DNA from: Phoronis australis | Lineage: Eukaryota; Animalia; Phoronida | DNA length: 64,000 nt | Direction: 5' to 3' | Assembly: GCA_002633005.1 (NCBI GenBank) | Contig: NMRA01000589.1 | Span: forward strand, 154,641 to 218,640 | Part shown: positions 41,204 through 59,977 of the stretch, piece after piece | Layout of the letters: every line of letters starts with the position of its first letter | How positions within the stretch are numbered: the stretch's first letter is position 1 | Made by a program: the position numbers and the translations under genes | The notes under the pieces: generated by a model | Databases searched by the model: none | Seen by the model: the letters and a program-made list of their open reading frames with translations, nothing else | Told to the model about the DNA's origin: nothing

Positions 41204-44200
41204 CCGTGCACAGTAATGAAGCAGACACCAGATGCTCAGAGGGCAAAGAAAAACTTCACTTCAATTTAGATGAAGACAGATGTGCTCAGCTCAAGTCCAT
41301 AGCGAAGGCACTAGGATGTCATGTCATCGACGTTTTCGTGGCGTTTGTCTACGCAATTCTCGTACGTTACGAAGGAGCCGAAAAGTCGTCTTCTGTCGAA
41401 GTTGGCTTTGCAACTCCAAATGAAGATCAAACCTCAGAGACCACTCTATTCCTCTCAGACGAATTCCTGCAATTCACGGACATTCAGTTACCTACTGACA
41501 CACAAGGGGATGTTGCTAGCTTAATACAGTCATTCAAGACCAGCTTGGGAAAAGTAGTCAACGCTGTCTCACCATACAAGACATCTTTGCCTAACATTCT
41601 TATTGGTTTTAACTTCCCACGGGAATTTGAGAAGCATGTGGCGCTAGACAGGTTTGCAGTGCGGCTACAAGCAAACAGGTTTAAGAACAAAGACACAAAC
41701 CTTGATACGTACAGATGCACGCTTGTATACAGTGGTGAAGGCAAAAGTGCTGGCCTCCTGAAAATGTTCGAAGGGCACCTCCTTACGCTTGTTCAAGAGG
41801 TCATTGTATCACGAGAAGTCGGCAAACAAATGAATCTCTTTAGCTTACCAATGCTAACTCCAAGCGAAAAGAGTTTTCAGGATCATTACAATGACACCAA
41901 CAGAAAGTATTCTGAAGGCAAATTACTGATGCATGAACTATTTGAGAAGAAGGTGAAGATGTCCCAGGACGCAGTTGCTGTTAAATGTGAAAACGAAAGT
42001 CTTACATATGCAGAGCTTGATCAACTCTCAGATAGTCTAGCTGAACAGATATTGTCAACGGCAGGCGACAACTTGAGCAATCGCGTGGTTGGCATAAGCG
42101 TTGACGCCTCAGTCCAAATGGTTGTTGGTCTCTATGCCATAATGAAGGCAGGATTGGCTTACGTACCTTTAGACCCAAGCTACCCCGAGGATCGTCTGAG
42201 CTATATGATTGAAAACTCCGAAGCGTCATTGATTCTTGCAAAGACAGACATGACAGACAAACTTAAGAAGTTTTCAGCGAACGTCTTGTGTTTAGATGAT
42301 ATGCTCAACCAAGTAGAATTTGACCCAAACCACAACGTCATCAAGAGAAATAAGAAGGTTGACGTCAGACCAGACGACTTAGCTTACATCATCTACACAT
42401 CAGGGTCAACGGGAAAACCCAAAGGGGTAATGATAAGCCACAGAAATGCAGTCAATACAATTCTGGACATAAACGACAGATACAACATTACTGCCAAAGA
42501 TAAGTTACTCCTTGTTGCATCTTTAAGTTTCGACTTATCGGTATATGACATATTTGGTATTTTAGCAGCTGGTGGGACCCTAGTCATCCCTGTCCCAGAA
42601 ATTCGCGGTGTCCCGGATCCCGCCTGTTGGATAAAAACTATGAAGCAAGAGAGCGTCACGTTCTGGGACTCTGCTCCAGCAGTATTAAGCCTTCTGGTAG
42701 AGTATCTTCACTCAGAGGGGGACGTCTTACCTCAATCATTACGTCTTGTAATACTAAGTGGTGATCGCATACCCCTAATGCTGCCTTCTCACTTGCAAGA
42801 AATGGTGCCAAACGTACAGGTTATGAGCCAGGGGGGAGCAACCGAAGGTTCTATTTGGTCAATTTACTACCCAGTCAAAACAGTTAACCCTGCTTGGACA
42901 ACCATACCCTACGGCATGCCATTGACAAATCAGAAGTATTATGTTTTAGATGAGTTCCTGAACCCTGCACCTACCTTAGTGACTGGCGAGCTTTACATCG
43001 GTGGTCTCGGAGTAGCAATGGGATACATGAATAACGAAAAAGTCACCAGCTACCGTTTCCTCCCTAGTCCATTTAAAGACGGCGGACGCATTTACAAAAC
43101 GGGAGACTTAGGTCGATTTCACCCTGAGGGGTACATCGAGTTCTGTGGTCGCATTGACAACCAAGTAAAGATCCGAGGATTTAGAGTCGAGCTATCGGAA
43201 ATTGAATCCGCCTTGATTAACCAAGACGGTGTGGACGATGCCCTAGTCATGAAGGTTCAGGAAAAGCTTGTTGCTTACGTCATACACGACCAACATGCTA
43301 AACTAAACGCGACAGACCTTCAAAAGCATATTAGCGAAACCCTGCCAACATACATGGTGCCAGCATACATAGTTATCATGGATTCATTTCCGGTTACCGT
43401 GAACGGTAAAGTTAACCGAAAAAAATTACCTCCCGCGGAATCAACGAGCCACAGAACCGAAGGCACAGGACCACCAGACGAGACTGCCCAATCATCAGAG
43501 CTAAAACTTTCAAACAACGAACAAGCCATCGCATCTGTTTGGTGCGAACTACTGAACACCGACATCCAGTCAATAAAACCAAGATCGTCCTTCTATGAAG
43601 TTGGTGGAGATTCCATATCCGCCATGACTATAGTGACGCAGTTGAAAAAGAAAGGCTTGAGCTTGACTGTCCAACAACTTCTAAGTCAACCAACTCTAGA
43701 ACAATTGGCATTAGTAGCCAAACCCATCAAGAAGCGAGTGGGAACAAAACAACACGAAAGAGAGGCGTCATCACCAAACGTGGAACTGACTCCAGCACAG
43801 GTTTGGTTCTTTGAGCAGGAGTTTGACAACATCAATTTCTGGAACCAGTCTTTTCTCATGATACCAAAAGTTAGATTGGAAAAAGAAAAATTGTCAAATG
43901 CTGTCCATGGTCTTGTCTCAAAACACGAAATGCTGAGGTGTAAATTCACCAAAGATCATCTTGGAAAATGGAAACAGACAATAGGAAATGAAGTTTCCTT
44001 TGTTTTTGAAAATGAAGATATATCAATAGACTTACTTAACACTAATATTGACAAGCTTAGACGGTCACTTGACATTTCCAAAGGTATCCTTATTGCAGTT
44101 GGGCTATTTGAAATCGATGGAGAACAGAAAATCTTTGTCACTGTTCACCATCTTGTAGTTGATTTGGTATCGTGGCGCATAATTCTAGAAGACATCGAGT

Positions 44201-59500: not shown

Positions 59501-59977
59501 GTGGCGTTCGAGATGGCGCTTCAGCTTGAGCTAAAGCAATACCCACCCGCCAGACTGGTTCTGCTCGACGGCACACCAGAGTTTATGCGGAGAACTTATC
59601 ACGGCATCAGTAGTAAAAGCGAAGACGAAATTGTCGATGTAAAGAATTTCTTGACAAAAACGTGGGACGAGAAAGGACTGGACAAATCTGACCTTCAGAG
59701 AGCGTTGACCAACTTCAACAACACCGTCTCTCAGTACGCTAGCTACTCGCCGACTGAATTGTACCACGGCAGCACCGTTCTTGTTCAGCCAGCTAGCAAT
59801 GAAAATAATGAGTTGTTGATGGCGGCTATCTCGCAGATGCCAAGTGAAGATTATGGGCTACAGGCGCTGTGTACCCAACCTGTGAAGATCGTAGTGGTGG
59901 AGGGAGATCACTACAGCATGATGCGAGATGCAGACGGAGTGATATCTCATACAGTTGTGGAAGGACTATCTCAGTAG
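41204..59977 (+). CDS. Multimodular non-ribosomal peptide synthetase, C(half)-A-T-E-C-A-T-C-A-T-E-C-A(remnant)-T-TE, >=4,740 aa after removing the 772-bp assembly overlap
   Basis: Exons 41204-50548, 51209-52202, 52549-52678, 53117-56896, 57695-57805, 59337-59977 join in frame with GT-AG introns. A-domain P-loops YTSGSTGKPKG, YTSGSTGRPNG, YTSGTTGKPKG. Carrier motifs GGDS, GGHS, GGDS, GGTS. C-domain HHxxxDG x3. E-domain HHxxxDLVSW, ExxGRE and RTxGWF x2. TE motifs GYSTG and GDH. The start codon is on an unlocated upstream exon. Confidence 0.93.
48161..49705 (+). repeat. 772-bp direct duplication separated by one N (probable haplotype overlap at a contig join)
   Basis: 48161-48932 and 48934-49705 differ by about six substitutions, mostly synonymous; N at 48933. 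Confidence 0.9.
50593..51043. mobile_element. Tc1/mariner-like MITE inside an NRPS intron
   Basis: TA-flanked diverged TIRs TACAGGAGTTTTCCGCAGATAAGCC / GGCTTATCCCCGGAAATATCGGTA; internal subrepeats gcgtttatttgg and ttccgaata. Confidence 0.5.
51209..52202 (+). CDS. NRPS exon: core of adenylation domain A3
   Basis: AYIVYTSGTTGKPKGV, FDGA, NEYGPCE, GVARGYLNRP, YNSGD, GRKDRQ; donor CAG|GTAAAG. Confidence 0.9.
52549..52678 (+). CDS. NRPS exon: A3 A8 motif and Asub start
   Basis: Translates VKLRGFRVELGEVEHALATLEGIGNAAVLMKKDILVGYVTPDI, completing GRKDRQ|VKLRGFRVELGEVE; this frame is not in the ORF track. Confidence 0.9.
53117..56896 (+). CDS. NRPS exon: end of A3, T3 (Ser 53383), E2, C4, remnant A, T4 (Ser 56776)
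   Basis: LPRYMIP, LGGDSISAM, LTPIQEWF, HHVAIDLVSW, SRTVGWFTVMYP, WTTHHSLIDGWS, FFDLGGTSI; donor G|GTGAGT. Confidence 0.9.
57695..57805 (+). CDS. NRPS exon: N-terminal part of thioesterase
   Basis: Translates ILVRLNEGEKDRIPIVCVHASDGGTSSYAYLA, a typical TE start (P..CVH..xG...Y..LA); phase 1 at both ends. Confidence 0.85.
58280..58420 (-). mobile_element. Repeat family A copy inside the last NRPS intron
   Basis: gacttcgcgagattacgtga...ctaggtcccagcgttactgaacgcacgccag is the reverse complement of the copies at ~15843 and ~22960. Confidence 0.75.
59337..59977 (+). CDS. NRPS terminal exon: thioesterase catalytic part
   Basis: PYLLVGYSTGGAVAFEMA, LVLLDG, VEGDHYSM; acceptor ttgcag; stop TAG. Confidence 0.9.

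Follow-up and report, generated by a model that had tools for sequence, protein, structure and literature searches.

Nonribosomal peptides of invertebrates that contain D-amino acids are usually credited to microbes. Can an animal encode such an assembly line by itself? Within the literature compared here, characterised multimodular nonribosomal peptide synthetases (NRPSs) of animals are few, and an explicit epimerization (E) domain is found only in ACV synthetase. We analysed a stretch of 64,000 nucleotides of the Phoronis australis genome (the window), in which an earlier note, made from the letters alone, had pointed to an intron-containing NRPS with two E domains. Since an intact gene with five predicted introns, whose nearest named relative is fungal and whose release domain resembles that of fatty-acid synthase (FAS), lies in an animal genome, it is likely that the animal itself makes an undescribed D-amino-acid peptide. 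With a probability of roughly two in three, we regard the gene as an animal-encoded type I NRPS for a peptide of three or four residues, two of them D-amino acids, released by a thioesterase (TE) that likely came from the host's FAS family. Table S4 of Suring et al. (2023) probably lists the locus already, though without describing it; new here are an ortholog of the same layout, the nearest named relative together with the fungal grouping, the FAS-like TE attached at an intron, and the cysteine-type first adenylation (A) domain.

Structure of the gene

The exons on the P. australis window (Table 1) are separated by five predicted introns, all of GT-AG type (660, 346, 438, 798 and 1531 nt), each containing 9-33 in-frame stops. 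The spliced frame has 4,741 codons with a stop only at its end, in agreement with the frame of at least 4,740 amino acids noted earlier, although its continuity requires that a 772-base duplicate at an assembly gap be collapsed. Two ORFs as long as 2,599 and 1,303 codons, scoring as they do for these domains, far exceed what chance would give. Pfam finds three AMP-binding, four PP-binding, five Condensation-family and one Thioesterase domain, and together with the E-domain comparison below this bears out the reading of three A domains, four carriers (T), two E domains, three full condensation (C) domains and a TE. Their order, A-T-E-C-A-T-C-A-T-E-C-T-TE, is also as proposed, preceded by a half-C: the N-terminal 240 residues give 11.7 bits on the C profile, a score reached by none of 200 shuffles.

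Table 1. Features of the NRPS locus (positions of the window)
Feature	Position	Strand	Remarks
Candidate start mini-exon	36271..36286	+	MTGGS, phase-1 donor; one of three candidate upstream donor sites
Large exon, first part	41204..48932	+	C-lobe remnant of C domain, A1-T1-E1-C1-A2-T2, start of C2; phase-1 acceptor
A1	41941..43425	+	cysteine-type clade; pocket DLYDISQIWK; 0/49 core columns changed
T1	43522..43710	+	Ser803
E1	43780..45105	+	His982, Glu1107; fungal-type HHLVVDL motif
C1	45148..46425	+	post-E type, HHSLLDG
A2	46498..47910	+	pocket DKGTVTAIFK; 4/49 core columns changed, P-loop Lys and A8 Lys among them
T2	47953..48153	+	Ser2279
Second copy of 48161-48932 after single N	48934..49705	+	likely uncollapsed allelic overlap
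Large exon, last part	49706..50548	+	end of C2 (L-L type, HHAVTDG), start of A3
Exon with A3 core	51209..52202	+	pocket DGQMALEINK
Exon with A3 motif A8 and subdomain	52549..52678	+	
Exon with end of A3, T3, E2, C3, 155-aa spacer, T4	53117..56896	+	
Exon with first TE strands	57695..57805	+	
Host repeat in intron 5	58272..58361		common to CUB-gene intron (15929-16000) and 3' flank (23038-23121, 23204-23267)
Last exon	59337..59977	+	TE and stop codon

The first exon lacks a start codon, so the model is short of a 5' exon, as the earlier note had also seen for a gene with five introns. No sense RNA reads fall in the bin of the candidate mini-exon. A further upstream module was considered and rejected, because no exon with a C or A domain was found on the plus strand at 31.3-41.2 kb and blastx of 22-41.4 kb was also empty. 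Nothing useful was returned from the PDB for the N-terminus, for the spacer or for the 36-aa exon.

Catalytic domains

The pantetheine serine is present in all four carriers, the HHxxxDG motif in all three C domains and the His/Glu pair in both E domains. The exon at 53117..56896 alone holds T3 (Ser3321), E2 (His3501, Glu3636), C3, which is of post-E type with HHSLIDG, and T4 (Ser4452), a carrier of NRPS type; the spacer before T4 keeps a faint trace of an A domain, 5.9 bits. Two of the five Condensation-family domains are E domains: their best solved relatives are the E domains of TycA, GrsA and PvdL, with E-values of about 1e-50 to 1e-57, while C domains match at 1e-6 to 1e-8, and both are stand-alone rather than dual E/C domains. 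E1 passes the TIGR01720 model, while E2 scores 51.8 against a cut-off of 74.2 and has an atypical Glu motif.

A1 and A2 exceed the cut-off of TIGR01733; A3, split by introns, lay outside this whole-domain scan. From its sequence, A1 is assigned to the cysteine type: its best single-stretch PDB match is bacillamide BmdB, though its pocket agrees with the cysteine code at only seven of ten positions. The corresponding pocket of the ortholog described below, DLYNLSLIWK, is the cysteine code. The pockets of A2 and A3 differ between the two proteins.

Pfam Thioesterase recognizes the TE with 63.7 bits, and its triad of Ser4579, Asp4606 and His4720 aligns with that of the FAS TE. In a PDB search the human FAS TE matched at 58 bits and none of the 19 matches was an NRPS TE; against 517 proteins and 126 loci no score exceeded 36.5 bits, and matches in the ESM Atlas were bacterial stand-alone TE clusters only. 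A single-sequence AlphaFold model (pLDDT 36) was left unused. Intron 4 falls exactly on the border between T4 and TE, and the TE was likely recruited from the FAS family of the host. It is to be noted that the animal FAS TE, the top solved match of the last exon, aligns by its triad and C-terminal half, whereas the domain here follows an NRPS carrier and not an ACP, and that the match is modest.

Relatives and origin

Where did the body of this enzyme come from? The search for orthologs proposed in the earlier note yielded an ENA protein of 4,451 aa (P0207/P0398, on contigs of 2.4 and 3.2 Mb), which aligns end to end with the window NRPS at 36% identity and shares the domain order from the half-C start to T4, including the A-less C3-T4. 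The two group as sisters domain by domain, with tree support of 99/98 for A1, 98 for C1, 97 for C2, 97 for E2 and 88 for C3. Unlike the window gene, the ortholog is one uninterrupted ORF, with no introns in A3, and ends a few residues into the TE; it also has a canonical A2, other A2 and A3 pockets, and no spacer before T4.

Next in the trees comes ORX93211 of Basidiobolus (A1 97/88, C2 97, A2/A3 93/88, more weakly E 86 and C3 84), which is the nearest named relative of all A and all E domains, C1 and C3 by BLAST and of C2 by tree. The A2/A3 grouping sits inside a clade of early-diverging fungi (100/98), and the E domains lie on the side of the 36 fungal rows, without exception, and apart from every one of the 30 named bacterial rows. 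FastTree was used for the E and C trees, IQ-TREE under LG+G4 without mixture, on 47 hand-picked rows, for the A tree. The domain phylogenies called for earlier place E, A2, A3 and the post-E C domains with fungi and not with bacteria, and the suggestion of a peptide of a kind normally attributed to symbionts is not supported by the trees, since the named kin are early-diverging fungi. Judged by these alignments and trees, the NRPS body shares ancestry with early-diverging fungal NRPSs, Basidiobolus ORX93211 being the closest.

How can this ancestry be explained? We prefer an old transfer from fungus to animal, followed by intron gain and exchange of the TE; A2 and A3 nest among Zoopagomycota rows in the best tree (95/81), relatives are widespread in chytrids and zoopagomycetes, and neither A1 nor P0207 found a close prokaryote match among GTDB and JGI contigs (best segments at most 38%). 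Among the listed matches (120 of 284) to proteins shorter than 1,416 aa searched with E1-C1, none exceeded 34%. For the origin of the enzyme, another account is a serious possibility, if less favoured, be it opisthokont inheritance with loss in most animals, passage from an animal to Basidiobolus, or a common unsampled bacterial source. By an AU test, monophyly of the fungi to the exclusion of the animal rows is not rejected (p 0.108); the places of A1 and C2 are within or next to clades of bacterial type; identities are only 32-53%; and Suring et al. argue that transfer is not required for every one of the scattered NRPSs of animals.

Is the assembly line still working?

It might be that the gene is host-encoded and open and yet partly decayed or nearly silent, with A2 dead, so that a shorter product is made, the line depends on loading in trans, or it no longer works. 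None of the four core substitutions of A2 is present in the A2 of the ortholog, the motif of E2 is odd, and the fourth A domain is only the trace mentioned above. A2 nevertheless retains Asp235, the A7 motif and the A10 lysine, and deviations as large or larger occur among reference A domains (median 1, 90th percentile 4, up to 8 of the 49 core columns; A3 changes 2). No stop or frameshift occurs in 14.2 kb of coding DNA with the overlap collapsed, and the differences between the overlap copies are mostly silent.

Expression bears on the same question. RNA reads from four runs labelled as the same species were placed on the window, and in two runs they cover exons, introns and flanks of the NRPS. 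Most of them are antisense and spread alike over introns and exons. Two of the three raw-read runs give a sense depth of only about 0.37x (some 16 reads) and 0.19x (some 8 reads), and the third gives none, which is near the noise floor beneath the stronger antisense transcript. Of the 15 exon bins 10 contain sense reads, of the 5 intron or intergenic bins 1. In the RNA-seq check of the five introns, about 24 sense reads lie in exon bins overall, but among the reads listed no spliced read joins any of the introns, while a neighbouring gene shows splice joints at four introns in each of the four runs. Rotifer NRPS genes, too, have low baseline expression (PMC11258130). On balance we consider decay unlikely, and an intact gene, its splicing predicted, is the better reading once the assembly overlap is collapsed.

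Is the overlap itself an artefact? As assembled, the first ORF ends in a stop at 48939 and the frame shifts; if the duplicate (48161-48932 against 48934-49705) were genuine, C2 would be disrupted in this gene copy, or the gene would yield two separate products. This is very improbable. A single N lies between the copies, which are 99.2% identical; of their six differences five are silent and one is a replacement (P about 0.003-0.007 under neutrality), so that they look like alleles under purifying selection; the other gap in the window shows the same duplicate-flanked pattern (19617-20439), and the ortholog has a single C2 within one continuous ORF.

The gene in its host

The NRPS was said to adjoin a metazoan-type multi-CUB gene. 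The CUB gene is real, eight of ten tested exons matching Pfam CUB and the other two a CUB-like family, but it ends about 19 kb upstream and another spliced gene intervenes. The repeat in intron 5 is common to the introns and 3' flank of this CUB gene. DNA carry-over as a source of the RNA reads was rejected because the intron bins are one-stranded. We conclude that the NRPS is host DNA because of the shared intron-5 repeat, the RNA reads in two runs and the 5:1 ratio of silent to replacement differences in the overlap; these also support the earlier proposal that the host encodes a multimodular NRPS and with it makes a small peptide so far undescribed, with splicing and product as predictions. 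That a gene of a fungal or protist associate was joined to an animal scaffold by mis-assembly, for which the fungal nearest named relatives and the lack of a named animal protein in homolog and representative searches might speak, is hardly credible given this repeat, the abundant host RNA reads that the intron repeats draw, coverage on one strand that in two runs continues out of the flanking host gene and over the NRPS, the absence of assembly gaps between 20310 and 48933, a GC3 of 45% (GC 44%) between the 38% and 54% of the two neighbouring genes, and the FAS-like TE.

Proposed product

What would the enzyme make? T1 would receive cysteine, or a residue much like it, from A1, and E1 would convert it to the D-form. 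C1 would join this D-residue to residue 2 on T2, C2, of L-L type, would add residue 3 on T3, and E2 would turn residue 3 to D. C3 would then hand the chain to T4, a carrier without its own A domain, which is most likely loaded by another A domain of the NRPS, A1 being the best candidate; cysteine A domains of its class load several carriers in yersiniabactin synthesis. The TE would then release the product, probably by hydrolysis: a tetrapeptide of D-L-D-L type or, should T4 only relay the chain, a tripeptide of D-L-D type.

More speculatively, the window NRPS and P0207 may represent an old, overlooked family of animal-encoded D-peptide lines from zoopagomycete-like fungi, domesticated by intron gain and an exon-shuffled host FAS TE, in which one cysteine A domain would load both the first and the A-less last carrier to give a D-Cys-X-D-Y-Cys tetrapeptide with possible disulfide closure. 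With its two E domains, its fungal kin and a release domain that apparently derives from an animal, this host gene offers a concrete, testable case of an animal making D-peptides itself, and illustrates how an animal genome can accommodate a foreign assembly line. Given the ortholog, the gene seems to belong to a family and not to stand alone, and chemists in search of the product can be guided by the stereochemistry and the initial cysteine that are predicted.

Comparison with known systems

The single-module class of Ebony, Sm-NRPS, ACSF4 and FmtATR, which lack canonical C domains (PMC10531068, PMC11869996), is ruled out by the multimodular Pfam layout with canonical C domains. Basidiobolus meristosporus ORX93211.1 (P0001), a hypothesised, unconfirmed cyclopentapeptide synthetase (PMC7466969), is collinear with the window NRPS over 4,156 columns (33%) and shares a cysteine-type first A domain, stand-alone E domains with HHLVVDL and one C domain of L-L type. 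It has five A and three E domains, other A-domain pockets and no TE in the deposited model, whereas the window NRPS lacks this five-module layout and has three A and two E domains, an A-less last module and the FAS-like TE. The description of the gene model in that paper (four modules, two methyltransferases and a TE) does not fit the sequence examined.

Mortierella MpcA and MpbA (bioRxiv 10.1101/2020.08.21.262279) resemble the window gene in introns, a truncated N-terminal C domain, D-residues and a terminal TE; their dual E/C domains are of bacterial type, unlike the stand-alone E domains here, and in our tree the A domains of Mortierellaceae form a separate clade. Nematode nemamide NRPS-1 is likewise an animal multimodular NRPS with D-residues, a TE and an A domain used twice, its A3 incorporating both D-Asn (PMC8363725); no epimerase was found for its D-residues and the enzyme works with a PKS, whereas the window gene has explicit E domains and no PKS domain. 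The ACV synthetase of springtails and Plectus (PMC10531068) is also animal-encoded, with three A domains, an E domain, a TE and a D-containing tripeptide product. The difference in order suspected earlier is confirmed: ACV synthetase has one terminal E and the order Aad-Cys-Val, while the window NRPS carries E domains after modules 1 and 3, a cysteine-type A domain in module 1 and an extra C-T before the TE.

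Gene model and assembly

The NRPS of the window is a real, host-encoded feature, an animal multimodular enzyme whose function is predicted. Within 41140-59977 the plus strand holds open reading frames of 2,599, 586, 351, 1,303 and 244 codons, and the segments joined from them make 4,741 codons with one stop, which is terminal. Each of the five predicted introns runs from GT to AG, has an acceptor rich in pyrimidines and contains 9-33 in-frame stops. The continuous frame of at least 4,740 aa claimed in the earlier note is borne out, although only after a repeat is collapsed; as assembled, the join is interrupted by a duplicate. 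Bases 48161-48932 recur at 48934-49705 with 99.2% identity and a single N between the copies, and this repeat rules out the join 48932/49706 as an intron. Five of the six differences between the copies are silent and one is a replacement (P 0.003; 0.007 with transition bias), so that the duplicate has the pattern expected of two uncollapsed alleles of a constrained gene. At 19617-20439 a 129-base repeat stands on both sides of a 565-N gap, which likewise points to overlaps left uncollapsed in the assembly.

No ATG is present in the first exon, which opens in phase 1. Beyond its N-terminal end the ortholog P0207, an ENA protein, extends by only about four residues, and the start exon is therefore likely to be tiny; three candidate donor sites lie 5′ of the first exon, none with support in RNA coverage.

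Features in the window, with the NRPS exons obtained by joining of open reading frames
Feature	Position	Strand	Basis or remark
CUB gene, receptor-like	1540-22330	+	at least 10 CUB domains, each spread over two exons
Spliced gene	24012-31330	-	four RNA-confirmed introns; expressed in 4/4 RNA sets
NRPS large exon, first part	41204-48932	+	ORF joining
NRPS large exon, last part	49706-50548	+	ORF joining
NRPS exon	51209-52202	+	ORF joining
NRPS exon	52549-52678	+	ORF joining
NRPS exon	53117-56896	+	ORF joining
NRPS exon	57695-57805	+	ORF joining
NRPS last exon	59337-59977	+	ORF joining

Host context and RNA

Is the gene the host's own, or does it come from a chimeric join? NRPS intron 5 and the CUB gene (in one intron and the 3′ flank) have a common repeat of 80-83% identity, NRPS coding GC (44%) and GC3 (45%) are inside the range of the neighbouring genes, and 20310-48933 is free of assembly gaps. 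Contamination is therefore unlikely, and the gene is host-encoded as first claimed. Upstream of it are the multi-CUB gene, which had been called its neighbour, and then also the minus-strand gene, so that the adjacency holds only in part. The last exon of the CUB gene encodes a transmembrane-like segment followed by a long cytoplasmic tail. The minus-strand gene product has no Pfam family above cut-off; its C-terminal 180 aa may resemble the additional domain with which some invertebrate alpha-amylases end. By eye, 28057-28300 is a long, near-perfect inverted duplication. A degenerate piece of a non-LTR retrotransposon reverse transcriptase lies at 33730-34560 (RVT_1 of Pfam, below cut-off), and the beginning of a gene for a probably secreted protein (hydrophobic N-terminus) occupies 62770-63250 (+), just 3′ of the NRPS.

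RNA alignment, made outside 41441-48933, covered about 18-19% of three raw-read runs (X1-X3) and one contig set (X4). First mates fell on the plus strand for the minus-strand gene and on the minus strand for the last CUB exon, and a plus-strand first mate was thus taken as minus-strand RNA. Strands were counted over 48.9-61.1 kb in 30 bins, minus five repeat and five mixed bins. In the 15 NRPS exon bins, mean sense depth was 0.37 (X1) and 0.19 (X2) and antisense depth 0.83 and 0.84; in the five intron/intergenic bins, sense depth was 0.04 and 0 and antisense depth 1.37 and 1.73. Sense reads occurred in 10/15 exon versus 1/5 intron/intergenic bins. This hints at a scarce sense mRNA confined to the predicted exons, under a long antisense transcript. 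X3 and X4 had nothing on NRPS exons, and in the aligned regions none of the NRPS exon joints passed the threshold for listing, so that the RNA check proposed for the five introns yielded only sparse sense exon reads. Low, continuous minus-strand RNA spans the NRPS and its flanks (32000-61100) in X1 and X2, the runs with the few sense reads, and hardly in X3; it is a long antisense or intronic transcript.

Domains and active sites

In Pfam the domain order is A-T-(C family)-C-A-T-C-A-T-(C family)-C-T-TE. Two C-family domains, the first and the fourth, are E domains, as their solved relatives show; both retain the catalytic His and Glu, E1 lying above and E2 below the TIGR01720 cut-off. HHxxxDG is found in all three C domains and the carrier serine in all four T domains, and T4 is an NRPS-type carrier. 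The earlier count of three A, four carrier, two E and three C domains and a TE thus stands. The protein opens with 240 aa that make up the C-terminal half of a C domain (11.7 bits; 0/200 shuffles), and the 155-aa spacer preceding T4 shows no more than a faint trace of an A domain (5.9 bits; 0/200 shuffles).

Over 49 core columns, each shared by 90% or more of the 118 A domains used as reference, A1 has no change, A3 two and A2 four, including the P-loop lysine and the A8 lysine. The pockets read DLYDISQIWK (A1), DKGTVTAIFK (A2) and DGQMALEINK (A3). The first A pocket of P0207 is exactly DLYNLSLIWK, the cysteine code of A domains, and A1 matches it at 7/10 positions. The best single-stretch PDB match of A1 is BmdB, which activates cysteine.

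Relatives and ancestry

Among 150 representatives the best match is P0001, the Basidiobolus meristosporus NRPS ORX93211.1. The homolog search also gave P0207 and its 20-residue variant P0398 (contigs of 2.4 and 3.2 Mb). P0207 aligns end to end with the NRPS (36% over 4,178 columns) and likewise has a half-C start, two E domains and an A-less C3-T4, and its ORF stops a few residues into the TE; we infer a prokaryote-style gene call stopping at an intron. It was not found in GTDB and JGI contigs, and as query it matched chytrid, zoopagomycete and ascomycete NRPSs. No named animal protein is among the best 120-150 matches of each list, whose ranking favours long proteins.

In the E tree (FastTree, 95 of 570 E domains), window and ortholog group with 36/36 fungal rows versus 30 named bacterial and 25 unnamed rows (support 100). 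In the C tree (114 of 1,822), they pair at C1 (98), C2 (97) and C3 (88). C2 clusters with L-L type domains, as sister to the single Basidiobolus one (97), and C1 and C3 lie within a fungal clade that includes the remaining fungal post-E domains, a label given by a rough motif rule that missed some rows. In the A trees (133 of 1,888 domains; second tree, 47 rows, IQ-TREE), A1 joins the ortholog A1 (99/98) and next Basidiobolus A1 (97/88), inside a cysteine-type clade otherwise bacterial or unnamed. A2 and A3 cluster with A2-A5 of Basidiobolus (93/88), within a clade of early-diverging fungi (100/98), and A3 stands apart from the A3 of the ortholog. Monophyly of the fungal rows without the animal rows was not rejected (AU test, p 0.108). 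The domain phylogenies, with rows other than ACVS, nematode or rotifer sequences, group E, A2 and A3 with fungi and A1 in a bacterial-type clade, and common ancestry of the NRPS and the Basidiobolus enzyme is well supported, with transfer conceivable in either direction. The A domains of chytrid, dimargaritalean and Calcarisporiella NRPSs (P0403, P0407, P0012, P0422, P0066, P0473) unite with those of the Basidiobolus enzyme in one clade (100/98), apparently a native early-fungal lineage apart from Mortierellaceae enzymes.

As deposited, P0001 comprises five A domains and three E domains, with neither a TE nor any listed methyltransferase family, and the gene-model description equated with ORX93211.1 in the text of PMC7466969 disagrees with it. 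There the enzyme is only hypothesised to make cyclopentapeptides, described as comprising D and L residues in the texts of PMC10964425 and PMC11376311.

Thioesterase and proposed product

The last exon has as best PDB match an animal FAS TE (58 bits, E 9e-15), with which the Ser-Asp-His triad aligns; of 19 PDB matches the top 10 are FAS, and none is an NRPS-terminal TE. Compared with 517 proteins, of which 53 carry a TE-like motif at the end, and with ORFs from 126 loci, the TE query reached at most 36.5 bits, and its ESM Atlas matches are bacterial stand-alone TE clusters only. Since intron 4 lies precisely at the T4/TE border, recruitment of a host TE through exon shuffling would fit. The TE is probably host-derived, and its origin from FAS is a good lead, short of proof.

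By collinear logic, D-(Cys-like)-L-X-D-Y would be built on T3. C3, intact in both orthologs and of post-E type, would transfer the chain to an acceptor bound to T4, which, as there is no fourth A domain, is probably loaded by that of another module. In yersiniabactin HMWP2, one A domain is used twice. The same is described for nemamide NRPS-1 in the text of PMC8363725. The FAS-type TE suggests a linear tetrapeptide freed by hydrolysis, though a tripeptide or cyclic compound might be made instead. P0207 has A2 and A3 pockets unlike those of the window NRPS, so the peptides of the two enzymes probably differ. Of the earlier proposal of a host-encoded assembly line for an undescribed small peptide, host encoding holds, and the product is predicted.

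Comparison with known systems

Suring et al. 2023 (PMC10531068) list NRPS regions in 86 animal species, including phoronids, molluscs, echinoderms and lancelets. An animal row of its Table S4 spans 55,816 bases, exactly the window ORFs 41167-56982 plus 20 kb per side, so that the locus is probably already catalogued; its text, as examined, does not describe the domains, introns, fungal kin or TE, and Figure 2 may place the A domains. Epimerization is unmentioned in the main text of the rotifer NRPS paper (PMC11258130). Searches of the open-access literature on animal NRPSs gave no account of this enzyme type, though subscription papers or supplements may contain one. What sets it apart among animal multimodular NRPSs is the combination of two stand-alone E domains, a conserved A-less last module, ancestry shared with early-diverging fungi and a probably host-derived TE. 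In the text of PMC10531068 an E domain is described only for ACV synthetase, whereas the window NRPS has two stand-alone ones; Mortierella enzymes, as far as their preprint describes them, have dual E/C domains (bioRxiv 10.1101/2020.08.21.262279), and the mollusc bursatellin NRPS is presented as single-module (PMC11869996), unlike the multimodular enzyme of Phoronis australis.
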